DNA of 64,000 bases, taken from a bacterium (GTDB lineage Bacteria; Patescibacteriota; Minisyncoccia; Phycocordibacterales; UBA1550). Below are positions 4,469-23,408 of this stretch, piece by piece. The DNA is taken from assembly GCA_030649835.1 (NCBI GenBank), contig JAUSES010000060.1, positions 6,411 through 70,410 on the forward strand. The letters run 5' to 3'. The first letter of the stretch is position 1. The number at the start of each line of letters is the position of its first letter. Under the pieces are notes generated by a model. That model had not been told where the DNA came from. It ran no database searches and saw nothing but the letters and a program-made list of their open reading frames with translations. Made by a program: the position numbers and the translations under genes.

Positions 4469-5902
4469 CTATATCACCTCCACCATGATCATATTTGTTC
4501 CTCCAATGTGCCCAAAGGGTACTCCCGCTGCAACCACCACCTTGTCGCCTTTTTTTGCAAGCTTGTGCTTGAGGACATACGTTCGCACTACCTTCATAAC
4601 ATCAAGTACATTCGAAAAATGATCAATGCGCACGGGGAAACATCCGAAAACAAGCTCTAGTTGTCGGACAATATACCCCTTTGGGCTCATAGCGATAACC
4701 GTCTGCGCAGGGCGGTATCGCGACACCATGCGTGCTGTGAGACCTGACTCAGAGAGTGCGATTATTACCTTTGCACCCACTGCAGACGCCGTACTCACCA
4801 CCGAAAAGGTTACCGCGTCTACCACATCTTTACGATGTGCACTCTCGTTGCTTTCATGAACGGGGGTATTTCCGTAGAGCGCCTCGCGGTGTGGATAATT
4901 TTTTTCAGCTATGTTTGCGACATCAGACATCATTTTTACGGTCTCAACGGGGTACTCACCGAGGGCACTTTCCTCAGAAAGCATCACAGCGTCAGCGCCG
5001 TCTAAAATGGAGTTTGCCACGTCAGACACTTCTGCGCGGGTCGGTACTGGAGATTTTATCATTGACTCCATCATTTGGGTCGCTACGATCACTGGTTTTC
5101 CCGCAATGTTACATTTCTCAATGATCATTTTCTGTAAAATCGGTACTTCTTGTGCGGGCACTTCCACCGCCAAATCCCCACGAGCAACCATCACTCCATC
5201 TGCCTCTCTAATAATTGCGTCAATGTTCTGAATGGCTTCGTCTGTTTCAATCTTTGCAATAATTTTTACTGTTGATCTTGCTTTTGTGAGAATTGCGCGA
5301 AGCTCACGAATATCAGAAGCGCGACGAACAAAAGAAAGTGCAATGTAGTCAACTCGATGCTCAACACCAAATACAATATCTTCTTTATCTTTTGGTGTGA
5401 GGCAACTAATCTTTAGCGAGACGCCGGGAAGGTTGACCCCCCTACGCCCTTTAGTTTCGCCACCTACTATCACCCGACATTTTATTTCACTACCCATGAC
5501 ACTGAGAACCTCCAAACGTTTTTTACCATCATCAAGAAGGATAGAGTCCCCCTCTTTTATCTCTTTTGTAAGCGCGGGATAATTCACAAATGCCCTTGTC
5601 TCATCTCCAACACATGCTTTTGTGGTGAGCGTAAAGGTGCTTCCCTTTTTAAGAATCACACTGTCCTTATAAAAACCCCCAATGCGAATTTTGGGGCCAG
5701 ACAGGTCCTGCAATATCGCAGTAGGTGTCCCGAGCTTCTCAGCAACTTTGCGAATGTTCCTTACTTTTTCAAAATGCTCCTCGTGTGTGCCATGGGAAAA
5801 GTTTAGTCTGCAGACATTCATCCCAGCCTTCACTAGCTTGGTAAGCATTATCTCACTGTCAGATGCTGGCCCTATGGTTGCGACGATTTTTGTCTTTTTC
5901 AT
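4469..5902 (-). CDS. pyk: Pyruvate kinase.
   Basis: 'KIVATIGPAS...NVCRLNFSHG' and 'MVARGDLAVEVP' are canonical pyruvate kinase motifs. The protein is 477 aa. Confidence 0.95.
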   Translation of the reverse strand: MKKTKIVATIGPASDSEIMLTKLVKAGMNVCRLNFSHGTHEEHFEKVRNIRKVAEKLGTPTAILQDLSGPKIRIGGFYKDSVILKKGSTFTLTTKACVGDETRAFVNYPALTKEIKEGDSILLDDGKKRLEVLSVMGSEIKCRVIVGGETKGRRGVNLPGVSLKISCLTPKDKEDIVFGVEHRVDYIALSFVRRASDIRELRAILTKARSTVKIIAKIETDEAIQNIDAIIREADGVMVARGDLAVEVPAQEVPILQKMIIEKCNIAGKPVIVATQMMESMIKSPVPTRAEVSDVANSILDGADAVMLSEESALGEYPVETVKMMSDVANIAEKNYPHREALYGNTPVHESNESAHRKDVVDAVTFSVVSTASAVGAKVIIALSESGLTARMVSRYRPAQTVIAMSPKGYIVRQLELVFGCFPVRIDHFSNVLDVMKVVRTYVLKHKLAKKGDKVVVAAGVPFGHIGGTNMIMVEVI

Positions 5903-6122: not shown

Positions 6123-6311
6123 ACGGGATTCATTGTCGTGTTTGAATTTGAATTGTAAGAACGTATTATATCAAAATTTTGCATTTTCCCCAAGTTTTGC
6201 TATTATGCATTTTGTATTCTGCGTAGCCGAATCAGCTGATTCACATCTTGGATGAAAGCTTGGCCAAAATCGTGGCAATTCCAATCTGCTATTAGTAGAA
6301 TCAAAACATAT

Positions 6312-6386
6312 TCCGCGGTAGCTCAGTGGTAGAGCAAGCGACTGTTAATCGCTTGGTCGTAGGTTCGATCCCTACCCGCGGAGCCA
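6312..6386 (+). tRNA. tRNA-Asn (anticodon GTT).
   Basis: Manual cloverleaf: acceptor tccgcgg/ccgcgga; D-arm gctc-agtggta-gagc; anticodon stem agcga/tcgct with loop cuGUUaa; T-arm gtagg-ttcgatc-cctac; discriminator G; encoded CCA. Confidence 0.9.
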
Positions 6387-8129
6387 GTTAGGACGAGAGA
6401 GCTCGAAAGGGCTCTTTTGTCGTTTAAGGGCAACGCTATTTCTAGGTTCGAGCGCATCAATAAGTGCTTTTTGCTCTCTCATCTCATTTTCTATCAGTAA
6501 ATATGGATGAAGCTTATCAATAGTGAGTATTTTGTCCTTCAAAATTAGGTTCGAGCCAATCGTAGAAAATATCTCTCTTTTCTTTCGAAGATCCGGTTTA
6601 TTAAATTGATCTCTTGCGAAAGTGCAGAAATTAAACACGCGCTCGGCAATTTCAAGATCACCGTCGAGCTTCTCTTTGGTTCCTCCCATTTGTTTTTCTA
6701 TTGCTGTCCTTTGAGCAATAATCTCTTTTTTCTGCTCTTTGAATTCCTCAGGCGTGTATATTTCGTATTTTGAATTCAGTGGTGAGGAAAATTCTCTACT
6801 TATATTCACGAGCCGTGTCTGACAATCATCGTAAGAGGACTGCAAGGACATGCGAACCGCTTTTTCTTCCCCGCCAGAGTTCTTTTGTTTGTCTTGCAAA
6901 TATTCAAGCGCAAGCTCAAGATATTCTCGATCAATCGTAATATCCCCAAGAATCTTGTCGAACTGTGATTCAAGGTCTTCGAGCTTAATGTATTTTTGAG
7001 AACAGTTTTTATTCTTTTTCTTTGTGCAATGATAATACACATAGTTCAAAACCTTCGGGCTCTCCATGTCTGAAATATCAATCGCACATTTAGGGCACGC
7101 GGTACGATTCACATTAGAAAATTTATACTTGCATGCTGAGCAAATTATCTGATTCTTTTCTTCGGCGGTAATAGTAGAATCACACTCACCGCAACGCATA
7201 AGCCCCGTGAAAGCAAACTCTCGCGTTTGTGGTTGAGGCTTTCCATTTTTCCCAAGAAGAACTTGCGCTCTTTTATATTCTTTTTCTGTAATCATCGCCG
7301 GGTGATTCCCTTTAACCATCTTTACTTCACCCGTATCCGGGTCCGTCCATGGATAATAGCCATAGTAGAAAGTATCCTTAAAAATATTATACATATGGCT
7401 CATTGTCGGCGGATTACCTCCAATTTTTCTATGTTTTAAGGTTGTTAGACCCCATTCGGTAATTGCTATCTCGCGTATTTTTGAAACAGAATAAGTGCCC
7501 GTGAGGAATAGGTCCCACATTTTACGAACGAGCTCAAAACGCTCCGGATCTAGTGCAATAGTTTTATTTCCTTTTTCTGTACCTACATTCAAGTAACCTA
7601 TCGGGCCACCTGAGGGTCTCCATCCACGCATAGCTTTGCTATTTAATCCACGCTTCACATTCTTAGACAAGCGCATCACATAGTCAGTAGCACGCCCTCC
7701 TTCGATACTCATGAGCAATCCAGCATCTTCAGGATAGTAAGAGCGCCCGGGGGTCTTTATGACCTTAATGACTCCCTTCTGAAGCATCCACTGCAACCGT
7801 CCGTTGTCTATGGGGTTTCGAGAAAGACGGTCAATATCCCAACATAAAAGAGCGTTCGCTTCTCCTTTTTCAATTCTGTTTAACACATCATTGAAAATCG
7901 GTCGCCCTGGATCCTTCGCACTTTTTTCTTCAGTGAACGGGTCTCTCGCCAAGCTCAACTGCTCACGCTCTGCAACCTGCTTAAGCGCATTAGTTTGATC
8001 GCCAATAGAAGCAACTTGACGCTGAGAATCCTCAGAGCTCTTGCGACAGTATGCGAAGTACTTTAGCTTTTCATTTTTGTGCATAAAATAATCTACTTGT
8101 ACTATCCATTGTATCATCTTCGTAGCCAT
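6372..8129 (-). CDS. Large serine recombinase (resolvase domain, recombinase domain and zinc ribbon; phage-type integrase). The likely true start is an internal Met near 8084.
   Basis: 'YFAYCRKSSEDSQRQ' is the catalytic Ser motif of serine recombinases. A Cys cluster 'CGECD...CSAC..C' matches a zinc-ribbon insertion domain. The 3' end overlaps tRNA-Asn by 15 nt. Confidence 0.85.
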   Translation of the reverse strand: MATKMIQWIVQVDYFMHKNEKLKYFAYCRKSSEDSQRQVASIGDQTNALKQVAEREQLSLARDPFTEEKSAKDPGRPIFNDVLNRIEKGEANALLCWDIDRLSRNPIDNGRLQWMLQKGVIKVIKTPGRSYYPEDAGLLMSIEGGRATDYVMRLSKNVKRGLNSKAMRGWRPSGGPIGYLNVGTEKGNKTIALDPERFELVRKMWDLFLTGTYSVSKIREIAITEWGLTTLKHRKIGGNPPTMSHMYNIFKDTFYYGYYPWTDPDTGEVKMVKGNHPAMITEKEYKRAQVLLGKNGKPQPQTREFAFTGLMRCGECDSTITAEEKNQIICSACKYKFSNVNRTACPKCAIDISDMESPKVLNYVYYHCTKKKNKNCSQKYIKLEDLESQFDKILGDITIDREYLELALEYLQDKQKNSGGEEKAVRMSLQSSYDDCQTRLVNISREFSSPLNSKYEIYTPEEFKEQKKEIIAQRTAIEKQMGGTKEKLDGDLEIAERVFNFCTFARDQFNKPDLRKKREIFSTIGSNLILKDKILTIDKLHPYLLIENEMREQKALIDALEPRNSVALKRQKSPFELSRPNWLRG

Positions 8130-8364
8130 AAAGCATTGGTCTCAAATTTTGAGTTTCGCACTTTCTTACCAATCTTTTTACACTCATTAATTCCCTGAAT
8201 CTTTCTTTTCCAAATTCACCATGTTGCGCTTTTAACAACTGTTTAACAGATTTTTCACCTTCTTCACCCAAATATAATATTCTACATATTGCACATTCTA
8301 TTATTCCACTTTCATTAACTTTAGGATCATGAGTATGTTTGTCCCCTTCGCAATTTTTGACCAT
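8071..8364 (-). CDS. Hypothetical protein on the island.
   Basis: 97-aa ORF immediately upstream of the recombinase. I recognise no domain. Confidence 0.3.
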   Translation of the reverse strand: MVKNCEGDKHTHDPKVNESGIIECAICRILYLGEEGEKSVKQLLKAQHGEFGKERFRELMSVKRLVRKCETQNLRPMLYGYEDDTMDSTSRLFYAQK

Positions 8365-8542
8365 ATAAAGGTCAATGTCTTCGATTGAATTAATTGCCTT
8401 GATTATATTATTTTCATATGATTCGTACCTATTTTCTTGGTAATTTTCTTAATTAGTAATATACACTTGCCGAGTTACCGCCTTATAGCCAAGAAGACAC
8501 AAAGCTTACTCAGCAAAACGGCAACACATTTATTAACTGCTA

Positions 8543-8935
8543 CTAAAATGGTTCATCTTCATTTATCACTAAGGATTCCTGTGGCTCTTTGGGCATAAAG
8601 CAGAAGTTTTCTTTCCCATGTTTCGCTGTATCAATTTTCCCTTCATTAACTAGTTCCCTGAGAGCGACTTGAACATTCTTTGACCCAGCTACTTTCTTTA
8701 GTATTTCAGTCATTTCTCTCTTGGTTTTTCCGCCATCAGGAAGAATCTCAAGTATTCTCTCTTTTGCTTCCTCTTTTTTGTTTTCTTGGTCCTCAATTGC
8801 TCCACCATAACTAAGAATCGTTTGAACCCCATCGGACCCTTCCTGGTCTTTTATAATCGCCTTGAAGGGGTCTATTTCCTTCGTAAGGCGATTCTTTCGC
8901 TGGTATATGTCTATCTTCTTCTCCTCCTGGCTCAC
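8543..8935 (-). CDS. Hypothetical protein with a probable winged-helix. It may be the C-terminal part of the RepA-like protein after a frameshift.
   Basis: 'TKREMTEILKKVAGSKNVQVALRELVNEGKI' looks like a wHTH. It overlaps the upstream AAA_25 ORF by 125 nt in another frame. Confidence 0.4.
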   Translation of the reverse strand: MSQEEKKIDIYQRKNRLTKEIDPFKAIIKDQEGSDGVQTILSYGGAIEDQENKKEEAKERILEILPDGGKTKREMTEILKKVAGSKNVQVALRELVNEGKIDTAKHGKENFCFMPKEPQESLVINEDEPF

Positions 8936-9647
8936 TCTTCAGCATAAGCAATATTTCCACTGAGGCGGTTTTATCAGTTGAGCCAAACAAAAATTCCTTC
9001 TTTGGAACCTTGCCCTCGAAATTGCTTGGCTTGCGGAAGTGGTCCAAGAATACAACAGCGACACCTTTATCTTTGAGGACTTTGAGGCGGTTGAAGAAAG
9101 TTCTAATTTCATCTGCTTTTTCCTCCTTAATTCCACCCGACACTGCCCTAAAAGTATCTAGAAAAACAACTTTTATTTCGTAATACTCAATAACATTTAG
9201 AAGCCACTGCACCCCTTCGTTCGTATTGAGATTTAATTCTGTATCACTGTAAACTAAAATCTTTTTATTGCTCTCGTCAAAGCCTAGCTGTCTTCCTCTG
9301 CGCTGTGCCTCACTCTGAGACATTTCCATGTCAACATACAGAACATTGGACGCTTCGGTTTTGAACTCCTCGCGTCCAAGAAAATCAATTCCAAGGGCAA
9401 TACATCTAGCCATATCCATCGCAAGCCAGGTTTTCTTTTCTCCTGTAACAGAGGCTAGGATGACAAAACCTTCGCAAGGGATTAGGCCCTGAACCAACCA
9501 CCTTCTCTCTGGGAATTTTTTATTTCCTAGAGTTGTCCAGCTCATCGGCTCAAAGAACGGCTTCTCAATCTCTCTATCAATCTCCCTCATTTCTGAGCTT
9601 TCATTCCTTTCCTCCGCAAACTCCTTAAATGTTTTCTCTTCGTTCAT
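8811..9647 (-). CDS. RecA-like ATPase of the AAA_25 / RepA-like family, a probable mobile-element replication or mobilisation protein.
   Basis: 'GFVILASVTGEKKTWLAMDMARCIALG' is a P-loop of the RepA/AAA_25 type. 'VVFLDTFR' and 'VVFLDHFRK' are Walker B-like strands. Confidence 0.7.
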   Translation of the reverse strand: MNEEKTFKEFAEERNESSEMREIDREIEKPFFEPMSWTTLGNKKFPERRWLVQGLIPCEGFVILASVTGEKKTWLAMDMARCIALGIDFLGREEFKTEASNVLYVDMEMSQSEAQRRGRQLGFDESNKKILVYSDTELNLNTNEGVQWLLNVIEYYEIKVVFLDTFRAVSGGIKEEKADEIRTFFNRLKVLKDKGVAVVFLDHFRKPSNFEGKVPKKEFLFGSTDKTASVEILLMLKSEPGGEEDRHIPAKESPYEGNRPLQGDYKRPGRVRWGSNDS

Positions 9648-9870
9648 AACTTTTAGGCAATGTTATTTTATTAATATCAAGACTGCTTGTCACCGCCCCA
9701 ATAAGGCAAACAAGATTTTCGAAATACTCAAAAGCTTGTGCATCAGAGATGACCGTTTTGTTCTTAGCTTCGTAAAGCTCCTTGAATTTTTTGAGATAAG
9801 TATTTTTATCAACCATAAAATAAAACCCACTATTGAGGACCTGACTTCGCCTAGAAAGTCGGGACCTCAA
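9625..9870 (-). CDS. Hypothetical small protein.
   Basis: 81-aa ORF that heads the minus-strand island operon. Confidence 0.3.
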   Translation of the reverse strand: MRSRLSRRSQVLNSGFYFMVDKNTYLKKFKELYEAKNKTVISDAQAFEYFENLVCLIGAVTSSLDINKITLPKSYERRENI

Positions 9871-9892
9871 TAGTGGGTTCCTCTAGGCGAGC
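9835..9892 (-). terminator. Imperfect 22-bp hairpin followed by a U-tract (minus sense), a probable terminator after ORF 9981..10733.
   Basis: aacccactattgaggacctgac...gtcgggacctcaatagtgggtt is an inverted repeat. It is followed on the minus strand by 'tttattttat'. Confidence 0.5.
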
Positions 9893-9980
9893 GGATATAA
9901 AATATCCTGTGTCTAGCATAAAGAAACCCGTGTTTTTTCAACACGGGTCATGGATGGGTTTATTGTGGGTTACAGATGGG

Positions 9981-10733
9981 TTATTCTACAATTATCCTGA
10001 AACCAACTTTTTCAATATTGTGAAATATATCGGTGTTAACAGCACAGCCTTCAGGTAATATCTGCAAGTCTTCTTTAATTGTTTTAATTATTTGTCCTAT
10101 ATCAGAATATTCTGTTTTATTCAGCGGGAAGCCGAGCGCGTTGCAAAGGTCTTTATAGCTAGCTTGCTTTTCATTGGCATTCAATAATGTTTTCAACACA
10201 TTAAATTTTTGTTGATCTGCTTTAAAATTTACTTTTACTTTTCCAAGAGTTGTATCTCCAGTAATTGTATTGAAGGTAAGTTTATTTTTTCTACCAAGTG
10301 TAATTATACTTGGGTTGACGATTGTGGTTTTAGGTAGTTTCTTATTGAATACGTCGTCACCAGCCTCTTTCAAGAGGTTTAGGTGCTTGCTTGTTTCTGT
10401 GCGAATATTTTTTAGCAGGGTCTGAGATTCCTCACTTTGAATATTGCTGTATTCAATTCCTCCCTTTAAATTAGGAACGCTGTCTGCTTCGTAAAACTTA
10501 TAAAATTCGATATTATCCCTTTTTGCCATAGTGAGGAAATCTTTTATATCTGACTTCCAAATTTGATATCTAGAAAAAACTTCATCAAGTATATTTTTCT
10601 CTGCATATATAGCATCTCCTTCTTGGGCTTGGCGAGTAATATTTATACCCTCCAATATCAAGTCAGAAAATACTCTTTTGAGTTTACTAGGCGCCATGAT
10701 TGTAAATCCTACTCTTTTTTGACATAATGGCAA
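9981..10733 (-). CDS. Hypothetical protein on the island.
   Basis: Clean 250-aa ORF. I recognise no domain. Confidence 0.5.
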   Translation of the reverse strand: MPLCQKRVGFTIMAPSKLKRVFSDLILEGINITRQAQEGDAIYAEKNILDEVFSRYQIWKSDIKDFLTMAKRDNIEFYKFYEADSVPNLKGGIEYSNIQSEESQTLLKNIRTETSKHLNLLKEAGDDVFNKKLPKTTIVNPSIITLGRKNKLTFNTITGDTTLGKVKVNFKADQQKFNVLKTLLNANEKQASYKDLCNALGFPLNKTEYSDIGQIIKTIKEDLQILPEGCAVNTDIFHNIEKVGFRIIVE

Positions 10734-10939
10734 TACAACTGAATAGCAGTCGGCCTAACCCTTAGGAGTTTAAATGCTTAAGGTATGGTTGCGCAAATCC
10801 CATGGAAGGTACTGAACCCCGCGTTCAGCGACTCTTCCATGGGTCATATCGGGAAACTGGTATGTGGACGCAAGTCCTAGCTGGCGCGGGGTTCTGTGTT
10901 TATACCCCACGCTAGCTATATTATTGGCTAGCTATTTTT

Positions 10940-11206
10940 ATGAAAATTAACTCATCTTTATTAATATCAGGAATAACATTAATTATAGGTTTAACATTTA
11001 GTAAAACCGATCTTTTTTTACCTATTTCAGTATTAATTGCAAGTATCATTGGCCTCATTACTAGACAATGGGTTACATCAGACAGACTTGGAAGGGCTAC
11101 TAGGTTGAGCATCTTACTTAAATTCTTTTTATCTCTTATTGGTTTTTATGCAATGATAGGTCAACTCGTATGTATTTGGCTATTAGTAAGGTGGTTTATT
11201 CTATAA
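10940..11206 (+). CDS. Small membrane protein (3 TM helices).
   Basis: Hydrophobic 88-aa ORF. It is the first in a plus-strand run of small ORFs. Confidence 0.4.
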   Translation: MKINSSLLISGITLIIGLTFSKTDLFLPISVLIASIIGLITRQWVTSDRLGRATRLSILLKFFLSLIGFYAMIGQLVCIWLLVRWFIL

Positions 11207-11514
11207 AACATGAAAATATGTCCCAAATAATTACATATAGACACGACAGAGAATATGGATACTGTCATATAAAACTCGACTCTGGAGAAAGAATTCTGTT
11301 ATCAGAGGCGAGTGACTATATAAAAATCTTCAAATTACTTTTTGGTATCATTCCAATAAAAACAATTTGGAAATGGCATAGAACAAACGATCCAAAAGAA
11401 ACCGTACTTAAAATTATGGACAATCATCAAGATACTAGTTTCTTTGATTCATTTGTAAAAGAAATACAAAAATATCGCTCAACCGATGAGATTAAAAATA
11501 AATTCGGTAAATAA
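11170..11514 (+). CDS. Hypothetical protein. The probable start is the Met at 11218.
   Basis: Soluble ORF of 98-114 aa. I recognise no domain. Confidence 0.4.
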   Translation: MYLAISKVVYSIKHENMSQIITYRHDREYGYCHIKLDSGERILLSEASDYIKIFKLLFGIIPIKTIWKWHRTNDPKETVLKIMDNHQDTSFFDSFVKEIQKYRSTDEIKNKFGK

Positions 11515-11523
11515 AATAAATTT

Positions 11524-11835
11524 ATGGACAAAAATTATCAGAAATATTTATCGATAACAGCGGGAATAATGCTCCTCTTGGCTATCCCAGCAATCTGGCC
11601 TTATGGATATTTTCAGATTCTAAGGTGGATTGTTGCTGGAGTGGCCGTGTATAACGCATATTTCGCATACGAACTAAAGAAAAATGAATGGGTGCTTATT
11701 ATGATTGCCGTAGCAATACTATTTAACCCGATAGCTCCAATTTTTCTCCAAAAAGAAACTTGGGTAATTCTAGACCTGGTTGCCTCTGTTTTAATGTTTG
11801 TCTCAATTATAAAATTAAAAACTAAAAAATCATGA
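11524..11835 (+). CDS. Small membrane protein (3 TM helices).
   Basis: Hydrophobic 103-aa ORF. Its end overlaps the next ORF by 4 nt (ATGA). Confidence 0.5.
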   Translation: MDKNYQKYLSITAGIMLLLAIPAIWPYGYFQILRWIVAGVAVYNAYFAYELKKNEWVLIMIAVAILFNPIAPIFLQKETWVILDLVASVLMFVSIIKLKTKKS

Positions 11836-12365
11836 TAGAAAAAATTAAAAACATAGGGTGGACTGGGGCTGGCTTGCTCTTTATTCTATTGGTATTTATT
11901 CTAATAGGCTTTTTGGTGGTGGGAGGAGTTGGTTTTATTGAGAATCATCAAAACCTGATAGAATCAGTAAATAATGTAACTGCGGGTATTTTCGTATTAT
12001 TACTTCTTTTTTCTGTAATACCAAAATTACGAATTTTCACTGGAACTGGGATTGTATTTTTAACATACATCTGGATATTTTTGCTATGGTTAACTTGCTT
12101 AGTTATAACTTACGAATTCTGGGGCCTTATAGGAATCTTTATCGGTGTAATAATGTTTGGTGTGGGTTTATTTATTACCGCCCCTCTTGCTTTACTTTTT
12201 TCAGGCCAAGGGTTTGGCGCACTTCTGTTGCTTCTCTCTATTGGGCTTACTTACCTAATAAGAAATTTGGGGATCTGGATTGTCAGCAAGTATCCAGAGG
12301 CAGGTGTCTCTACTGAGATAAACACAAGCGACATAAATGAAGTAAATGATAAATTTGATAAATAA
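11832..12365 (+). CDS. Membrane protein (4-5 TM helices).
   Basis: 177 aa, very hydrophobic, with an acidic C-terminal tail. Confidence 0.5.
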   Translation: MIEKIKNIGWTGAGLLFILLVFILIGFLVVGGVGFIENHQNLIESVNNVTAGIFVLLLLFSVIPKLRIFTGTGIVFLTYIWIFLLWLTCLVITYEFWGLIGIFIGVIMFGVGLFITAPLALLFSGQGFGALLLLLSIGLTYLIRNLGIWIVSKYPEAGVSTEINTSDINEVNDKFDK

Positions 12366-12389
12366 ATTTTTTATAAAAACATTATTAAT

Positions 12390-12761
12390 ATGAGAATTTG
12401 TATCAAATGCAAAAAAAGAGAAGGTTCTTGGTGGGACCATTTGTGTCAGTATTGTCGCAAGATACCAGTATCTAAACCAGAAGCTCTTGCCTATGAAAAA
12501 TTAAATGAATCTAAAGATATTTTGAGTCAAGATAGGATTGAATATACCGTCAATCTAGAAAAAGCAACTAGTAGTTATTCCTCGAAGTTTGTTAATTTAA
12601 GTAAGGAACTTATTGAGAAGCTAGTAGGATTTTTGTTTCTTGTATTGTTTATGTTTTTAATTTATTTTGTAGCTAGTTGGTTTAAATTTGATACAAATAA
12701 TAATGCTGAAAATTACGAGCCATGCAAAACTTCTGGACACCAACTTTGGCAAGATTGCTGA
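12390..12761 (+). CDS. Zinc-ribbon protein with a C-terminal TM helix.
   Basis: The N-terminus 'CIKCKKREGSWWDHLCQYC' is a CxxC...CxxC motif. A hydrophobic segment follows at 'FLFLVLFMFLIYFVASWF'. Confidence 0.5.
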   Translation: MRICIKCKKREGSWWDHLCQYCRKIPVSKPEALAYEKLNESKDILSQDRIEYTVNLEKATSSYSSKFVNLSKELIEKLVGFLFLVLFMFLIYFVASWFKFDTNNNAENYEPCKTSGHQLWQDC

Positions 12762-12787
12762 TGTAAAAATGAGATATAATTACAAAT

Positions 12788-13069
12788 ATGAATGAAAAAG
12801 AAATATTAAAACTTAATGACGAAGTGCTAAAGATGAACAGTCTTGACTTCGCTAACTTTTTAGAAAAGAAAACGAAAACATACCAAGATGTTGAGCAGAC
12901 AGTATCTCAGGGTGGGGATGTTGCGTTTAAAACTATTCTTGCATTAAAGTATAAGGTATTTATTTTGGAAAACTCCAAGAAGAAACTGATTGTATATTCC
13001 TTCTTACTAACTATAATCATAGTACCTTTAATTATCCAAAGTCTTTCTTTTGTACTTCCAGAAATGTAA
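12788..13069 (+). CDS. Small protein with a C-terminal TM helix.
   Basis: 93-aa ORF. Confidence 0.4.
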   Translation: MNEKEILKLNDEVLKMNSLDFANFLEKKTKTYQDVEQTVSQGGDVAFKTILALKYKVFILENSKKKLIVYSFLLTIIIVPLIIQSLSFVLPEM

Positions 13070-13079
13070 AAATAAATGA

Positions 13080-13277
13080 TTGAGGTATCTTAAAGAAAAT
13101 CAAAATACTATGAAAAAATTAATAGGTCTTATCTCAACAAAAGGCAAGACCTCTGAGCAAGCAAGCAAGGAGGTTACGGACGCTTTCCACAAGTTCAACA
13201 AGATACAAAAGCAGGTTGAAATTGAAATGCGAGAGGAGGAGCTGTCACTCACACCCCAGCACGAGTGTCAGAAATGA
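13080..13277 (+). CDS. Small charged/coiled-coil protein.
   Basis: 65-aa ORF. Confidence 0.3.
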   Translation: MRYLKENQNTMKKLIGLISTKGKTSEQASKEVTDAFHKFNKIQKQVEIEMREEELSLTPQHECQK

Positions 13278-13301
13278 AAATAACAGCGGTAATATAAAAA
13301 T

Positions 13302-14063
13302 ATGCTTGGCGCAATTATTGGTGATTTTGTGGGGTCATACTATGAGTTTAACGCGGTCAAAACAAAAGACTTCGACCTTTTCCCCGTGGGCTCGAAATTT
13401 ACCGACGATACTATTCTTACCCTCGCTACAGCACACGCTATTCTAAATAAAGAAGATTACGGTAAATCTTACAAAAACTTTTTTTGGCAATACCCACTTA
13501 AAAACTACGGCGAGCGATTTTACGCATGGGGCAAAAGAGACGACTCTGAGCCATACAATAGTTTTGGTAACGGGTCTGCGATGAGGGTAGCTCCTGTCGG
13601 GTGGGCTTTCAATATCATTGAGCAGGTTCTTGAGGAGGCAAAGAAGAGCGCTGAAGTGACCCATAATCACCCAGAGGGGATAAAAGGCGCTCAAGCCGTA
13701 GCAAGCGCAATATTCCTCGCAAGAACTGGGGCAAGCAAAAAAACAATCAAGGAATACATAGAATTAAATTTTGAGTACGACCTAGATCGTTCCGTGGATG
13801 AGATACGGGAAACGGCCGTCTTTAACGAGACGTGTATGATAAGCGTTCCCGAGGCGATTATTTGTTTCCTTGATTCTGAATCATTTGAAGATGCCCTACG
13901 AAATGCAGTTTCTCTTGGGGCAGATGCTGACACCCAGGCATGCATCGCCGGAGCAATAGCAGAAGCATTTTACAAAGAGATACCGGATTTTATACGAGAG
14001 GAGGTATTGAAGCGCTTACCTAAGAAATTCCATGGGATGATTGATGAAATACTCACTGCATAA
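13302..14063 (+). CDS. ADP-ribosylglycohydrolase family protein (DraG/ARH-like).
   Basis: N-terminal 'GAIIGDFVGSYYEF', mid 'GNGSAMRVAPVG' and C-terminal 'GADADTQACIAGAIAEAF' match the binuclear-Mg ARH signature. Confidence 0.85.
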   Translation: MLGAIIGDFVGSYYEFNAVKTKDFDLFPVGSKFTDDTILTLATAHAILNKEDYGKSYKNFFWQYPLKNYGERFYAWGKRDDSEPYNSFGNGSAMRVAPVGWAFNIIEQVLEEAKKSAEVTHNHPEGIKGAQAVASAIFLARTGASKKTIKEYIELNFEYDLDRSVDEIRETAVFNETCMISVPEAIICFLDSESFEDALRNAVSLGADADTQACIAGAIAEAFYKEIPDFIREEVLKRLPKKFHGMIDEILTA

Positions 14064-14167
14064 GAAACGCTTCCAAATATCTCCCGTTTCCATGTGCTGA
14101 TTCTGCGCGATCAACCAGAATTCTGTAATTTTTTATTTCCATTTTTTAAATATAAATATGATGTACC

Positions 14168-16561
14168 CTACAGGCGAACTTGCTCTTGTACGTCTAGTTG
14201 AATCAGTTCTTGGAATTCATTCAATGTAATTACTTCCTCTCTAAAATTATCTGAATCAGATAAATCTCTTACCGTTAAAATAAAGGCGTAGGGTTGATTT
14301 TCTAAGTTTTCTTTTCCAAGAATTTTACTTTCATAAGATTGTGTTGCAGACAACTGTAAAAGTACCTCTAGCACAGTAGATGGTACTTTTTTCTTTATTT
14401 TTTTAAAATGAATCACATTGTGATTTGGGTTCCTGTAATGGTCCCATGTTGGAGTCTGGTTTAGAGACAGTGCTTTATTTTTTTCTTCAACCTCACCATT
14501 TTCATCAAGGATTGGGACCAAGAACCGAACTGCTGGTTCAACACTCATCATCTTATATTCTTTTGGGTAATTTTTATCAACGGGAGGGTTATAAGCAAGA
14601 GTGAATATAAACTCTACCTTTTTACCCAAGATACTTTCTGGGAGCTGTATTTGTAATTTGTGTTTCCTCTCAACGTAATTAATCTTATCTGCATACATTA
14701 ATGTTAGTTCATTTTCATTATCCTTTAAAGCAAGCTTGTGGTCGGGGACTCCAAAACCATATGCTCGTTTTATATGGTCATCCTCGATTTTTACTTGTGG
14801 AGCTTTTGCGGTTGAATGAATCAAAAGTGCCTTAACGAGATTAAGTTTATTGTTCTCTAAATCAACATAATCTGATGCTTTCGCTTTCTTTATAAAATCT
14901 AACAAAAACGCACATTATCTAGTGATTAAAGGCGCACTTAGGCTAGTGCCAATGTCTTTGTTGAGGCCATCCTTATTTATGCTCTCAACGCCAAAAACCT
15001 GATTTGAGGATATCATGTGAGCATTTCCATAACCAAAGCTTGGGTCTTTTTTTACATTACCTCCATTAGCAACCAATTCTGGTTTCTTAATATCTTTAGC
15101 GACACTGGAAGTACGCGTAAAAGGGGCTGGGAACCCTTGCTCAACATTTACACAACTAGCGTCAGCCTTACCCGAAATTGAGCCAACTGAAATTACATTA
15201 AGAGCATCACTTGGTGATGCAATAAGAGATTTTTCTTGTTTAAAAATAGTATTGTAATTTTCACTAGCGTAAACTTGATGGTTACCGACAGAACAAACAA
15301 ATATCACATCGTACTCCCTAGCTATATTATCCAAGAATTCGGTCAATTCACTCACGTCGTCTTTGTCTATCGGTTCATTTTCATTAATAGAGAGATTATA
15401 TATTGAAATATCTTCATACCTATTTACAACCTCAGAAATTGCACCCTTTAGTTCATCAAGGGAGACGCATTTTGAATCACTACCATCCAAATACAATACT
15501 TGTATGTCTAGAATATTACATGTTGGAGCAATAGAACCACCCCCTGTTAATTGCATAAAGAAGTTGTCACCAAACAAAATTCGGCTGGCCACAATAGTAC
15601 CGTGGTTCTTGTCCTCGACCTGATGTCGAGACAAATAATTATGGTGATGAGCCCTAAGCTGTTGGAGTATTGGATTATATATACCACTATCAATGAGACC
15701 CACTCTTTCTGCTGTTAGTGGAGCAAGGAGATTCAGTGCCCCAAGATTAATCTCTGGGATACACCTCTGTGAACTCAAAATTGGTTGCTCTCTTATTTTG
15801 CCGATAAAATTAAAATCTGCATCACTTAAAATACCAATAATTTCATTTGCTGTAAGGGTCGCCAAGAATGATATGTTACTAAAAAATAAGTTTATATTTC
15901 TCTTTTTCAATTTTCCACGAAAAACAAGTTGATCGTTCAAAGAATCAAAGAGTGTGTCGTATTTATCTTTGCCAATATTTGGGTAAATCTCAATAATGCA
16001 ATCAATTGTTTGATTTAAAATATTGCCATGAATAAGTGAGTAGATATAATTACTTACCCGGCCCTCAATGATTGTATTACGGTCTGTGACTGCCGACATG
16101 GCATACAATTCACGCAACAGATTCTTGTCTTTTTTTCTTGGTAAATCCTCCCCTGTGAGGGCAGCATCAAATGAGCCGCTATTGCTTATACTAACCAAAC
16201 GGTCAAAATCCTCTATTTTCCCACTAACGATAAATGTTTTGTCGTTTTTAGAACCAACAATTTCAAGCCCCGTCTCATTCCACACATCAGCAGGACTGTT
16301 AGATTTTGAGTTTGCCAGCTCATCTAATTCGACTTCGACATACAGTAATTTCCCGGCAGTTTTTGCTTCCGATTTTATTTTTTTAACAGTTGTATCAATC
16401 TGCCTTACGCGCTTTGAAAACACTCTGGCGTAATGTTCGCGGGTATCATCAGTAATTTTCTTTTCCCAAAACGACTTCCAAAAATCAGAACCTCCTCCAG
16501 GCTTTTTACCTTTATTTATCTTCTTTTTGGGTACAACAATTGAAAAGTTCATATATTTCAT
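14168..16561 (-). pseudogene. ietS: Subtilase (peptidase S8), IetS-like. It is split into ORFs 14915..16561 and 14168..14905 by a single in-frame TAA at 14915..14917.
   Basis: The Asp motif 'VGLIDSGI', the His motif 'NHGTIVASR' and the Ser motif 'GTSLSAPLITR*' are present. The downstream ORF is in the same frame and continues with a subtilase-like C-terminus ('LVKALLIHS', 'AYGFGVPD'). Confidence 0.6.
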
Positions 16562-17661
16562 TTTATATTGTCACGAAGCGTAGTGTACGCAATACCAGAA
16601 ACTTCAGATATGTCAATTAAATTGAAACTGCTATCTTTTAACACTTGCGCAATTTCATAAAGATTCTTTTTGTTAAGCCTCTGTTTTGATGTTAATTGGT
16701 GATTAAAAGAAATAATATGTTTTAAGCAAAAAATATTATCTAAGCTTATACCCTCTATTACCGATGCTCTTTTTATGTTTTGGCATATATCATTAATTAA
16801 AGAACCATTTAAACCAACAGTGACTCTTGCCATTAAATTATAGTCTAATGATTTATTTTTATTAAAATCACTTAAAAACAACTCAAACAATAGAGCCCTC
16901 GATTCCTCTTCTGGGGTATTAATTTCTAACCTTAGCCCGAATCGTCTCCATAGTGCCTTGTCCAACAACTCATCATGATTTGTTGCTCCAATTAGAATTG
17001 AAGTCACTGGGAATAAGTCAATATTTTGAAGTAACACAGTAACTACTCTCTTTAATTCCCCCAACTCCCTTGCATCATCTCGATGTTTAGCTACTGTATC
17101 AATTTCGTCAAAAAAGATGACTACTCGCTCCCTTTTTGCAATTTCAAAAACCTCGCTAATGTTTTTCCCTGTTTTACCTAAATACGATGAGACTAGTTCA
17201 TCTAATTTGACAATAATAAGTGGGAGGTTCAATTTATTCGCAAGAGCATAAGCTAATCTTGTTTTCCCTGTACCAGGTGGTCCATAGAAAAGAATTTTGT
17301 TTATAGGGGAAATATTATTTTTAAGTAACTTATCAAAAGCTTCCCAATGCTTTATAAACTCAATTATGGTTGTCCTTGTATTTGGATTAAGGACAACAGA
17401 ATCTAATTCGATGTTTGAGTAAATTTTTTCAAAAAGAGTATCGTTATTGTTTAGATTTATATTCCTAGAAGTTAACGACTGCCCAGATAAGGAATGCCCC
17501 CTAGACACATCTTTAATCAGATTTGACAATCTTTTGGCAACTAATATTTTTCCGTTAGCTCTTTGTTTTTTTATCTCCTTTTCTAGGACAGAAACAACCT
17601 CCTCGTTTTTACCTGAGGAAAAAGCCTTTACGATATCTTCTACGATATTTATAGTTGCCAT
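16558..17661 (-). CDS. ietA: AAA+ ATPase, IetA-like partner of the subtilase.
   Basis: Walker A 'GPPGTGKT', Walker B 'VIFFDEIDTV' and the classic AAA sensor region are present. Its stop overlaps the start of the S8 gene (ATGA). Confidence 0.8.
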   Translation of the reverse strand: MATINIVEDIVKAFSSGKNEEVVSVLEKEIKKQRANGKILVAKRLSNLIKDVSRGHSLSGQSLTSRNINLNNNDTLFEKIYSNIELDSVVLNPNTRTTIIEFIKHWEAFDKLLKNNISPINKILFYGPPGTGKTRLAYALANKLNLPLIIVKLDELVSSYLGKTGKNISEVFEIAKRERVVIFFDEIDTVAKHRDDARELGELKRVVTVLLQNIDLFPVTSILIGATNHDELLDKALWRRFGLRLEINTPEEESRALLFELFLSDFNKNKSLDYNLMARVTVGLNGSLINDICQNIKRASVIEGISLDNIFCLKHIISFNHQLTSKQRLNKKNLYEIAQVLKDSSFNLIDISEVSGIAYTTLRDNIK

Positions 17662-18041
17662 AAAATCCGTAATTTAAAAAAACCAACTAAATTAATACTC
17701 TTATTGTATCATATTACGAAAATTAATGTAAACCATATTTTCGTAATTATATTTGTACCCCCCTGATGAGCACTCCAAAGAATAGCTAAAAAATATAAAT
17801 GAGTTTTTGAGAATTAATTTTCCCCAAGAGCCTGGGGGTATGGGTATCCCCCCAGGCTCAAAATGGCTCTATGTTCACACAAACTACCCAACGCCGTATT
17901 TTCCATCACACGGGGGCCTACGTCGAGGGGTATGCACACCGCCCCTGCCCTATTGCACTGAGAGATTGGGAACATAAAAATCATCAGATCGAGTGGCTAT
18001 CCAAGTTCTAATAGCCTCGACTGTTCGGAGCAAATTAAAAC

Positions 18042-18066
18042 CCCTCGAAAGAGGGTGTTTTTATTT
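18042..18066 (+). terminator. Short GC hairpin plus T-tract (cccctc-gaaa-gagggtg-ttttt).
   Basis: Stem-loop followed by 'tgtttttatttg' inside the long noncoding tract. Confidence 0.4.
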
Positions 18067-18089
18067 GCTCCGCGGAGTAAAGCGAAGCT

Positions 18090-18460
18090 TTACGGTAGGG
18101 ATCGAACAGCGGAGCGATATTTTGTTAGCAAACAAAATCGCGAGCTGGTGCCCAGACAGAACTTTTTGACGAAAAAGTTTTAGTCGAGGGAGATATCCCT
18201 ATCCGCCCGGTAAGATCGAAGACCTTGAGTATATTTATGATGATGTACTCATCTGAAGAAATACAAAGGTGTACCGTTCCTGTAAGGAAAGATACCCCTA
18301 CCCTTAGGGATCGAACCGAAGACCCACCATTTTGGGAATGAGAGTATTCTCGAAGACCTACAAAATGGATGGTCTCGATCGCATGGAAGGGCGATCATGC
18401 ATACAATCAGCACAGCGACCTGGTAAATCGTGACCACTCCCTACTAGCAGAGTCAGTAAG
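18090..18460. repeat. Array of at least three related structured elements (about 110-150 nt each). Each is framed by 'gtagggatcgaa' ... 'ccctac(ccgc)' and contains paired hairpins.
   Basis: Similar cores occur at 18097, 18209 and 18303. 3' motifs 'gata[ct]ccctaccc' occur at about 18200, 18290 and 18447. Internal stems include 'aactttttg/caaaaagtt' and 'gacccaccattttg/caaaatggatggtc'. Confidence 0.45.
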
Positions 18461-18531
18461 GGCACAATAAAAATACCTATAGATACTTTAAAAGACTAGA
18501 ACTTGTTTTAAAAAAATGGTAATTTGAATTT

Positions 18532-21620: not shown

Positions 21621-22517
21621 ATGAAAAAAATAATTATTGCATTGGTTGTTATTGTTCTTATCGGCCTCGGTGTTTGGTTTTTTATGAATAAGAGTGCGGA
21701 GGCTCCGACTCCGGTAGTGACTGCTCCGACAACGACCACGACTGCTACAGTGGTGACAGAGGAGCCTGTTGACACCACAAGGACAGTTCTTGGAACGTCT
21801 GTTGAAAATCGCGACATCACCGCGTACCACTACGGCACCGGCGCAAAAGAAGTTTTGTTTGTTGGAGGAATTCACGGCGGTTACGAATGGAACACTGCGC
21901 TCGTGGCATATGAGCTCATGGACTACCTCACGGCAAATCCTAAGGTTATTCCAAGCAACGTAAGAGTGACTGTCATCCCCGTGCTCAACCCAGACGGTTT
22001 GAAAAAAGTTACAGGAAAAGAAGGGCGTTTTACAAAAGCTGATATCGCTACATCAGAGTCTGTCGTTGTATCTGGTCGCTTTAATGCAAGCGGTGTTGAC
22101 CTCAACCGCAACTTTGATTGTGATTGGCAGACAAAGGCAGTGTGGATGAACAAACCCGTAAGTGGCGGAAGCAAAGTATTTTCAGAACCTGAAAGTATGG
22201 CAATTAAAAACTACATAGAAACTCACAGCCCCGTAGCTACTGTCGTATGGTACAGCTCTGCAGGCGGTGTATTCTCTTCAAACTGTCACAACGGAATCCT
22301 TCCTGAAACAAAAACTCTTACAAATCTTTTTGCAAAAGCATCTGGGTACAAAGCCTACGAGACGTTTGATTTCTATGAGACTACCGGCGACATGGTAAAC
22401 TGGCTTGCAAAAAAGAACGTTCCTGCAATCAGCATTCTTCTCACCACCCACGACGATACGGAGTGGAGCAAAAACCTCGCAGGGATTAAAGCGACACTAA
22501 ACCACTACGCAAAGTAA
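21621..22517 (+). CDS. M14-family zinc carboxypeptidase (gamma-D-Glu-DAP / murein peptide carboxypeptidase-like), membrane-anchored.
   Basis: It has an N-terminal TM helix. 'FVGGIHGGYEWNTA', 'DLNRNFDCDW' and 'SEPES' are M14 zinc-binding and catalytic motifs. Confidence 0.85.
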   Translation: MKKIIIALVVIVLIGLGVWFFMNKSAEAPTPVVTAPTTTTTATVVTEEPVDTTRTVLGTSVENRDITAYHYGTGAKEVLFVGGIHGGYEWNTALVAYELMDYLTANPKVIPSNVRVTVIPVLNPDGLKKVTGKEGRFTKADIATSESVVVSGRFNASGVDLNRNFDCDWQTKAVWMNKPVSGGSKVFSEPESMAIKNYIETHSPVATVVWYSSAGGVFSSNCHNGILPETKTLTNLFAKASGYKAYETFDFYETTGDMVNWLAKKNVPAISILLTTHDDTEWSKNLAGIKATLNHYAK

Positions 22518-23408
22518 ATGAAGTTTCTTGTTTCTAAACAAGCGCTCATAATCATCAGTATTCTTGTTCTTGTTGGACTTGGGTTTTTGTTATCACTATC
22601 TCTAAAAGGCAAACCCAGCGTTCCACAACCTTTGGAAGTGTCTCCTACCCCAACTCCCCTTGTCCTTCATAAAATAATTGGAAAATCCGTACAGGGGCGC
22701 ACGATAAATGCGTACGTCTACGGAAATGGAGCTACACACCTCTTGTTTGTAGGTGGCATTCACGGCGGATACGAGTGGAACAGCGTACTTTTGGCCTATG
22801 AGGCGATGGACTATCTGAAAAAAAATCCTGACGCTGTGCCAAAAAAAATCACTGTGGCAATAATCCCCTCTGCAAATCCTGATGGACTTTTTAAGGTTGT
22901 TCAAAAAGAGGGACGCTTCTCTGTCGCGGATATTCCGACTACAAAACTGATTGAAGGTACGGGGCGTTTCAATGCGCACAATGTTGACCTCAATCGTAAT
23001 TTTGATTGCAACTGGAAACCAAAAAGCACATGGAAAAATAACGTGGTCAGTGCAGGTACAAGTGCTTTTTCTGAACCTGAAGCGCAAGCCATTAGAGATT
23101 TTGTTTTTGACTTCTCTCCCGATGCAGTGGTCTTTTGGCACAGCAAAGCAAATGCCGTATATGCGTCAGAGTGTAACAACGGTGTCCTCCCAAAAACACT
23201 AGACATCATGAATACATACGCAGGTGCATCAGGATACACTCCAATAAAGTCATTTGATGCGTACAAAGTCTCTGGTGACGCTGAAGGATGGCTTGCTTCA
23301 ATAAATATTTCTGCTATAACCGTTGAGCTAAGTACTCACGAGACGGTTGAATTGGCGCAAAACATACGCGGGATGCGAGCTCTAATTGAAAGTTATACTC
23401 ACCAATAA
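22518..23408 (+). CDS. M14-family zinc carboxypeptidase, a tandem paralog.
   Basis: 'FVGGIHGGYEWNSV', 'DLNRNFDCNW' and 'SEPEAQAI' match the upstream gene. Its start overlaps the upstream stop (TAAATG). Confidence 0.85.
   Translation: MKFLVSKQALIIISILVLVGLGFLLSLSLKGKPSVPQPLEVSPTPTPLVLHKIIGKSVQGRTINAYVYGNGATHLLFVGGIHGGYEWNSVLLAYEAMDYLKKNPDAVPKKITVAIIPSANPDGLFKVVQKEGRFSVADIPTTKLIEGTGRFNAHNVDLNRNFDCNWKPKSTWKNNVVSAGTSAFSEPEAQAIRDFVFDFSPDAVVFWHSKANAVYASECNNGVLPKTLDIMNTYAGASGYTPIKSFDAYKVSGDAEGWLASINISAITVELSTHETVELAQNIRGMRALIESYTHQ

Follow-up and report, generated by a model that had tools for sequence, protein, structure and literature searches.

Do eight tightly packed genes that end in an ADP-ribosylglycohydrolase (ARH) make up one dedicated system, or are they independent genes that a mobile element has brought together? 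The question is raised by a stretch of 64,000 nucleotides from a bacterium of the Patescibacteriota (GenBank assembly GCA_030649835.1, contig JAUSES010000060.1; the whole stretch is called the window here), in which eight plus-strand open reading frames (ORFs) lie head-to-tail at positions 10940 to 14063, with intergenic gaps of -4 to 40 nt. The array is probably the cargo of an integrative element of about 12 kb (the island), which encodes a large serine recombinase and lies beside a tRNA-Asn gene. The original prediction, made from the DNA letters, had taken the eight ORFs for a candidate uncharacterised accessory system. Its eight-gene observation is confirmed, whereas the interpretation as one system is not borne out. 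The reading that we put at a little better than even is a mosaic cargo array headed by a LOOT RNA, in which the ARH would serve, by analogy with known enzymes, as a lone orphan eraser of ADP-ribose. The genes of the array are as follows.

10940-11206, plus strand: o1, 88 aa, about three transmembrane (TM) segments by hydropathy; a rare family
11218-11514, plus strand: o2, 98 aa, soluble, no TM segment by hydropathy
11524-11835, plus strand: o3, 103 aa, about three TM segments; a DUF6804 membrane protein
11832-12365, plus strand: o4, 177 aa, about five TM segments; an unnamed membrane-domain family
12390-12761, plus strand: o5, 123 aa, N-terminal CxxC..CxxC zinc ribbon and one TM helix; an orphan
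12788-13069, plus strand: o6, 93 aa, one C-terminal TM helix; an orphan
13110-13277, plus strand: o7, 55 aa as annotated, hydrophilic; an orphan
13302-14063, plus strand: ARH, 253 aa, a stand-alone ADP-ribosylglycohydrolase

Hydropathy and sequence inspection reproduce the membrane, soluble and zinc-ribbon descriptions that had been given for o1 to o6. The conserved form of o2 begins at 11218, and a 114-aa ORF from 11170 is not this form, while o7 would have 65 aa if begun at the TTG codon at 13080. Homologs back the coding of five of the eight genes (o1, o2, o3, o4, and ARH); the coding status of o5, o6, and o7 is read from ORF packing and the GenBank annotation only. The source assembly includes the GenBank proteins MDO8604587-91 (locus tags Q7K40_04320-04345).

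All island proteins were compared by tblastn with 140 related loci comprising 1.7 Mb, which are referred to below by L numbers. The ARH has matches in 92 of these loci, o1 in 12, o2 in 8, and DUF6804 (o3) in a single one, and o4, o5, o6, and o7 have no relatives in any of them. The only locus that unites three of the genes is L006, with o1 (61% identity), DUF6804 (45%), and ARH (74%), which are scattered there over both strands of an 8-kb stretch that holds many unrelated small genes, the DUF6804 copy lying on the opposite strand relative to the ARH. The other homologs of o1 and o2 occupy ordinary chromosomal settings (Hsp20/L28, TopA/tRNAs, and trigger factor/ClpP). Clustering of the neighbours at 74 ARH loci yielded no conserved partner, but only generic families and the regulator NrtR, and among 84 ARH loci analysed the window is the only one in which at least four small ORFs of the same strand immediately precede the ARH. 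The base composition divides the array as well: o1 to o6 have a GC content of 0.30 to 0.35 and o7 and the ARH one of 0.43 to 0.44, the latter resembling the element backbone and the host genes, and the GC content at third codon positions (GC3) is 0.21 to 0.34 in o1 to o6 and 0.54 in o7, so that both measures step between o6 and o7. Together, the co-occurrence counts, the lack of an ARH partner, and the GC step indicate a mosaic of independently distributed genes rather than a conserved system, in which o1 to o6 are small and low in GC, five of the six encoding membrane proteins, and o7 and the ARH are a separate higher-GC block. The outcome that had been named beforehand as refuting the original idea, small ORFs that are not kept together in other genomes, is essentially what was observed.

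The last gene of the array is the one whose family can be named most clearly. The ARH matches PF03747 over residues 1 to 224 (E 4.4e-35; 122.2 bits against a cutoff of 26.2) and phrog_6572 of PHROGs (E 2e-56), and it contains the GDFVG, GSAMR, and GADADT motifs, in agreement with the original assignment. In an alignment of 23 sequences of its clade, E15, T34-D35-D36, and D208/D210/T211 are invariant; T37, which completes the T34-D35-D36-T37 motif, is present in the window protein but is not invariant among the aligned sequences. The metal-motif residues align with the corresponding segments of ARH3 enzymes, and the catalytic roles of E15 and of the T-D-D-T and G-x-D-x-D-T residues are presumably those known from ARH3 and DraG structures. 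Since the motif residues are invariant, the enzyme should be catalytically competent, judging from its sequence. The closest solved structures are ARH3 enzymes, with a weak and partial match (E 1e-14).

The ARH has more than 8000 homologous proteins, and its clade of about 255 aa spans at least 595 species of many phyla at 52 to 62% identity. It shares with DraG, ARH1/ARH3, and Tri1 the PF03747 superfamily, the paired metal motifs (TDDT and GxDxDT), and the N-terminal Glu; these enzymes have about 300 to 400 aa, however, against about 253 aa in the window protein, and there is no DraT, Tre1, or nitrogenase context in the window (neither DraT nor nif genes occur among the window ORFs examined). 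A DraG orthologue was rejected, with 51.2 bits for TIGR02662 against a cutoff of 337, so the grouping with housekeeping DraG orthologs that would have spoken against an accessory role was not found. Tri1 was likewise rejected (NF041672; 43 bits against a cutoff of 490).

What such an enzyme might do on an integrative element is suggested by the company that its relatives keep. The matches of the clade include 28 phage records and 52 plasmid records. Moron or early-gene arrays of temperate phages offer a parallel: in the Porphyromonas phage phage005b_ATCC49417 and the Bacteroides phage Versailles, only one gene follows the ARH (same clade, 45 to 51% identity) in a long series of mostly tiny ORFs on one strand, which resembles the layout in the window; the island differs in having no structural phage genes, and its small ORFs, mostly membrane proteins, are not homologous to those of the phages. 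The closest relatives of the window ARH sit among defence-type genes (NOV_C, an MmeI-type methyltransferase/SNF2, and HEPN_AbiU2). NUDIX, ARH, and Macro genes lie together in L101, the ARH of L006 is accompanied by a weak NUDIX match, and L089, a sibling of the island, carries cREC_REC and Macro domain proteins (5505-5825 and 6176-6718) in its cargo in place of an ARH. The cREC_REC domain is a cyclic-phosphate-processing receiver, and together with the Macro domain it forms a set of ADP-ribose or cyclic-phosphate processing enzymes.

Two described systems provide the precedent. AdfN is an orphan NADAR ADP-ribosylglycohydrolase of T4-like phages, which reverses the DNA ADP-ribosylation by DarT1 and thereby counters DarTG1 (PMC11825919). 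Like AdfN, the window ARH is a stand-alone eraser candidate on a mobile element without a cognate transferase, with homologs in tiny-ORF phage regions, although it has the ARH/PF03747 fold instead of the NADAR fold, resides on an integrative element and not in a lytic phage, and belongs to a clade known from genes alone. DarG3, the ARH-like antitoxin of the DarHTG defence system (PMC13069673), undoes DarT-type ADP-ribosylation with an ARH-type fold, which shows that conflicts over ADP-ribosylation can involve enzymes of the ARH fold. It is encoded beside DarT and a UvrD-like helicase, whereas no DarT or other ADP-ribosyltransferase (ART) is found on the window island or near 74 homologs. From the mobile contexts, the erasers among the relatives, and the precedents of AdfN and DarG3, we infer an orphan ADP-ribose eraser. 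By this analogy, the ARH most likely works alone, benefiting the element or the host; it would hydrolyse ADP-ribosyl adducts that ADP-ribosyltransferase toxins or defences set on element or host macromolecules, and would correspond, with its ARH fold, to AdfN, the NADAR eraser of phages, and to the antitoxin DarG3. The reversal of ADP-ribosylation as a counter-defence, which had been proposed earlier, is therefore plausible in the light of these precedents, whereas the antitoxin role proposed alongside it is unsupported, with no ART on the island and no conserved neighbour in 74 loci. The search for a cognate transferase covered the island, where Pfam, PADLOC, PHROGs, and NCBIfam indicate no ADP-ribosyltransferase or toxin domain on any ORF.

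The array is headed by an RNA that had been overlooked earlier. The features between the divergent upstream gene and o1 are the following.

10700-10728, plus strand: promoter-like site of the LOOT RNA, TTGTAA and CATAAT with a 17-nt spacer and a TG extended -10, by consensus scan
10752-10905, plus strand: LOOT RNA (RF03000), Rfam span 10752-10878
10878-10932, plus strand: window-specific hairpins between LOOT and o1, by RNA folding (z = -6.5) and terminator scan

The LOOT motif, described by Weinberg et al. in 2017 (PMC5737381), has no known function. The window copy is full length (model positions 1 to 121), reaches 73.4 bits where the gathering score is 46.4, and lies 62 nt upstream of o1. 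The extended -10 of its promoter is TGACATAAT at 10720-10728. The block TGACATAAT..CAAnACAACTGAATA is kept upstream of the LOOT RNA of L100, and a related form is present at 6 viral LOOT loci. Beyond the Rfam span, the long-hairpin apical loop (10817-10824) pairs over 8 bp with the 3' tail (10884-10891) to form a pseudoknot, which is directly followed by a U-rich run at 10892-10905. Across eight LOOT sequences, all 64 of 64 cells of the pseudoknot are paired and 5 of the 8 pairs show compensatory changes, against 41 to 53% paired in slid controls. The promoter, the 3' pseudoknot with its U-tract, the residence on integrative or phage-like elements, and the position at the head of cargo genes thus extend the description of LOOT given by Rfam.

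LOOT is absent near the o1 and o2 homologs and near most ARH loci, and a model built from the window copy detected no further copy in 1.39 Mb of ARH, o1, and o2 loci. L100 has a LOOT RNA (297-419; 67.8 bits), and 24 nt downstream of it begins an operon whose products are a trypsin-like protease with a membrane anchor, two membrane proteins, an ARH with 64% identity to that of the window, and a membrane-anchored SNase. A pattern scan of IMG/VR together with both models found LOOT in seven contigs (L124, L125, L128, L135, L136, L138, and L139; 79 to 94 bits). The pattern is biased toward the LOOT subtype of the window, and L135 is a duplicate of L128, leaving eight distinct LOOT loci for the alignment. 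Phage-type genes were confirmed in three distinct contigs: L125 and L139 carry a terminase, L125 in addition a diversity-generating retroelement reverse transcriptase with bAvd, and L128/L135 carry portal and SU10 capsid proteins. L124 and L125 are phage-like contigs in which serine recombinases homologous to that of the window adjoin LOOT. In 5 of the 8 loci, a same-strand ORF, usually for a membrane or secreted protein, follows about 20 to 70 nt past the LOOT end. There is no space for a separate sigma-70-type promoter between LOOT and the o1 start codon (ATG at 10940), and the array would therefore most likely be transcribed by read-through from the LOOT promoter.

How well the alternatives compete with the mosaic reading depends largely on the counts given above. 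The eight genes could still form one dedicated multi-gene system, with a sensor or effector role for the membrane and zinc-ribbon proteins and an enzymatic or antitoxin role for the ARH. The tight same-strand packing with the 4-nt overlap of the o3 stop and the o4 start would fit such a system, as would the presence of o1, DUF6804, and ARH within 8 kb in L006 and the membrane-anchored proteins that accompany the ARH behind the LOOT RNA of L100. The L100 operon, however, has only LOOT and ARH in common with the window, no pair among o1 to o7 co-occurs except o1 and DUF6804 in L006, in a different order and strand, and the missing conserved neighbour of the ARH clade, the GC discontinuity between o6 and o7, and the lack of a detected toxin or ART domain point in the same direction. 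The co-occurrence counts largely refute this alternative, and we regard it as very improbable. Hardly more probable is a two-gene module of o7 and the ARH, in which, for instance, a small protein regulates or inhibits its partner enzyme, and which would have been acquired jointly and separately from o1 to o6. The two genes are 24 nt apart and share a GC content and GC3 unlike those of o1 to o6, and an unrelated small ORF frequently sits just before the gene of a close ARH homolog (62 aa in L002; 41 and 102 aa in L007), but these ORFs show no detectable similarity to o7 or to each other, no o7 homolog was found upstream of the ARH at the other loci compared, and 64 of the 84 ARH loci have no small ORF directly upstream. 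The main rival concerns the ARH itself, which might be a hitch-hiking housekeeping or salvage enzyme of NAD/ADP-ribose metabolism that acts on an O-acetyl-ADP-ribose-type metabolite or on endogenous ADP-ribosylated proteins and has no role in conflict. The clade is ubiquitous at its level of identity across phyla, its nearest solved relatives are ARH3 enzymes, which also hydrolyse O-acetyl-ADP-ribose, and L101 combines NUDIX and Macro genes with the ARH. NrtR (a NUDIX domain with the NrtR winged helix) is an ADP-ribose-responsive NAD regulator and the most specific recurrent neighbour of the clade; at 7 of the 74 genome loci (L013, L017, L023, L047, L060, L062, and L065, mostly cyanobacteria) it lies within 6 kb of the ARH, and at three of these seven the distance is no more than about 200 nt. 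This association keeps a housekeeping role in play as the main rival, which we consider unlikely, though well short of negligible. It accords poorly with the recurrence of the clade on plasmids and on phages, in the latter within early-type arrays of tiny ORFs, with the restriction-modification, HEPN, and NOV_C genes around the closest relatives of the window ARH, and with the Macro and cREC_REC proteins in the cargo of the sibling L089; a tiny mobile element would also be an odd carrier for a housekeeping gene.

A further alternative is compatible with the mosaic reading and concerns its first component. LOOT may be a cis-acting leader, riboswitch- or attenuator-like, that gates the cargo array including the ARH, in which case the array would be a regulated cassette instead of constitutive morons. 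This is doubtful but has several features in its favor: the conserved promoter directly upstream of LOOT, the covariation-supported pseudoknot followed by a U-tract at the 3' end, the closely following same-strand ORF in 5 of 8 loci with no room for another promoter, and a predicted hairpin at 10878-10918 in the window, which would compete with the pseudoknot for its tail, so that the tail can switch between the two. Rfam, on the other hand, classes LOOT as a small RNA, the next same-strand gene in L128/L135 and L139 is 0.3 to 1.1 kb away, L139, the closest LOOT relative, shows no sign of the alternative hairpin, neither a ligand nor a factor is known, and the sample comprises only eight sequences from a biased pattern. 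In its fullest form, which is slightly more tentative again, LOOT would be a leader RNA of mobile elements whose pseudoknot and U-tract gate read-through into an exchangeable cargo, here consisting of membrane proteins and an ARH eraser directed against ADP-ribosylating immunity in candidate-phyla bacteria. Several observations weigh against the preferred combination of a LOOT-headed mosaic with an orphan eraser. A terminator-like hairpin at 10911-10932, followed by a T-run, separates LOOT from o1, and the argument for read-through is one of spacing. The seven phage-like contigs with LOOT have no ARH, and among about 85 other ARH loci LOOT is present only in L100, so that the link between LOOT and ARH may reflect the common ancestry of two loci. 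The eraser theme among the nearest relatives comes from three or four loci, the ARH clade has no known substrate or target, and the proximity of NrtR hints at NAD/ADP-ribose housekeeping rather than conflict. The element may moreover be decaying, given a frameshift in its AAA_25 gene and a nonsense codon in its IetS gene, both described below.

On the preferred reading, the operon is most likely an ordinary mobile-element patchwork and should not be pursued as a new eight-gene system; the array is accessory, the reversal of ADP-ribosylation is plausible, and the eight genes are not one system. The ARH clade is very widespread, has no solved close relative, and is carried by phages, plasmids, and small integrative elements. 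In the light of AdfN and DarG3, the clade is an obvious candidate for an ARH-fold orphan eraser, which is directly testable. LOOT gains a concrete genomic setting (integrative and phage-like elements, a promoter, a pseudoknot with a U-tract, and a downstream cargo), making its function approachable by experiment.

The small ORFs themselves differ in how far they can be traced. In searches of Pfam, PHROGs, PADLOC, and NCBIfam, the DUF6804 match of o3 was the only hit above threshold, the remaining small ORFs giving nothing or sub-threshold matches; the PADLOC set, which did not include o7, gave no match for o1 to o6 or the ARH except a marginal match of o5 to PbeC (E 0.007). Scans of IMG/VR with o2, o3, o4, and o5 and a tblastn search of GenBank phages with o3, o4, and o5 found nothing. 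The o1 protein has 26 homologs of about 88 aa with 50 to 66% identity, which come from L006, from the circular element L089, and from chromosomal regions of small genomes, where some sit beside core genes on scaffolds of about 0.73 Mb. It has no annotation in the public record and is missing from the protein collection, and the gene call of the Logan contig L001 at this place is an opposite-strand 63-aa ORF (10921-11112, minus strand). For o2 there are 8 homologs with 44 to 87% identity, one of which carries the NCBI label Patescibacteria, and its AlphaFold2 (AF2) model (pLDDT 89.7) has five strands and three helices, a fold with no significant match in the PDB or BFVD. The label of this o2 homolog and the small-genome scaffolds of the o1 homologs point, indirectly, to a probable Patescibacteria/CPR host. 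The assignment of o3 to DUF6804 (PF20619) covers the full length (E 9.6e-25; 87 bits against a cutoff of 27). The relatives of o4 comprise 308 representative clusters at E<=1e-3, many with variable C-terminal extensions; o4 has no Pfam match, nor have 8 of 10 long relatives that were checked for fusion partners.

Each of the three ORFs o5, o6, and o7 is the sole member of its 90% cluster. The CxxC...CxxC zinc ribbon of o5 spans residues 4 to 22 and its TM helix residues 72 to 102; the single-sequence AF2 model, which is informative for the TM helix only, predicts a helix at residues 64 to 106 with confidence. The protein after LOOT in L138 has an o5-like architecture of zinc ribbon and TM helix, with no detectable homology. 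The small membrane proteins are probably independent moron-like genes, likely acting at the cell envelope, whereas the abortive-infection or exclusion roles that had been suggested for them are pure conjecture.

The mobile setting of the array, which had been proposed from the letters of the DNA, is reflected in the genes around it: a tRNA-Asn gene, a large serine recombinase, a rep-like AAA_25 gene, and an IetAS module were all found.

6312-6386, plus strand: tRNA-Asn (GTT), left edge of the island, by ARAGORN; Rfam tRNA 72 bits
6372-8129, minus strand: large serine recombinase with Resolvase, Recombinase, and Zn_ribbon_recom domains; the final codons run into the 3' end of the tRNA gene
8543-9647, minus strand: AAA_25 (RepA-like) gene, PF13481 E 8e-32; apparently frameshifted at about 8925-8935
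9981-10733, minus strand: p250, a 238- to 250-aa protein of no known family, divergent from the LOOT and cargo side
14168-17661, minus strand: IetAS module, convergent with the array; IetA 16558-17661, IetS 14168-16561

The extent of the element is suggested by the independent Logan contig L001, which equals window positions 6356-18189 exactly and opens with the last 31 nt of the tRNA-Asn. With one break of L001 at the 3' end of the tRNA and the other at 18189, the element ends may act as branch points in assembly, which suggests an element of about 11.8 kb. A search for attachment (att) sites turned up neither a convincing direct repeat nor another copy of the 3' end of the tRNA. The sibling L089 is a circular contig of 9.2 kb, with a 127-nt terminal overlap, that encodes a serine recombinase, an AAA_25 protein, and an o1 homolog, which indicates that the element family can exist as a circle.

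The AAA_25 gene consists of an ORF for the N-terminal part (8811-9647) and an ORF for the C-terminal winged-helix part (8543-8935), the latter matching the C-terminus of the intact 294-aa homolog in L089 (E 8e-12). The frameshift sits in a GA-rich run, and element decay, a programmed shift, or an assembly error are all possible. The p250 protein has no match in Pfam, PHROGs, or NCBIfam. Genes in L006 and L089 are positioned like p250 relative to o1, but show no significant similarity to it (E 0.85). The C-terminus of p250 resembles a winged-helix DNA-binding domain, which suggests a regulator. A hidden ART in p250 was considered and rejected from a reading of its sequence, as there is no family match and the C-terminus is winged-helix-like.

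The IetAS system consists of an ATPase and an S8 protease and is a plasmid-stabilising toxin-antitoxin and anti-phage system. PADLOC gives clear matches for IetA (E 1e-92) and for IetS in two pieces (E 2e-51 and 8e-20), directly downstream of the array and convergent to it. The module is separate and not part of the operon, and its IetS is split by a single in-frame TAA codon (14915-14917), just past the catalytic-serine motif (..GTSLSAPLITR*), that is identical in the independent assembly L001. Genetic code 25 was rejected as the source of this stop, because the codon is TAA and not TGA. IetAS has also been described as a stabilising toxin-antitoxin module in the study of DarHTG (PMC13069673).

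Downstream of IetAS, the region 17662-18531 comprises 870 nt without an ORF of at least 100 aa and with many hairpins, and L001 stops within it at 18189. It contains two inverted copies of a 12- to 15-mer resembling a tRNA T-arm (18092-18106 and 18305-18316; TAGGGATCGAAC), and a comparison of the region with Rfam gave no credible match. This stretch could be the att region at the right end of the element.

Some further observations concern neighbouring and related loci. Two small Cys- or Tyr-rich secreted families are common to the cargos of L006 (6455-7946) and L089 (6916-7511) and absent from the window; the first has a ..DCSGHxAGYxWAxENGI.. motif and a weak match to YxzE-like bacteriocins, and the second a ..GTYVxxYYRSxP.. 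motif. Upstream of the LOOT copy most like that of the window, in L139 (19-2743), the sequence resembles an Rhs-type C-terminal fragment that is followed by small ORFs, which are candidate immunity genes. Just past the island lies a pair of neighbouring ORFs (21621-23408; 298 and 296 aa) that have in common a 62-nt repeat with 73% identity at a spacing of 888 nt; the first encodes an M14 zinc carboxypeptidase, and the pair is probably a tandem duplication.

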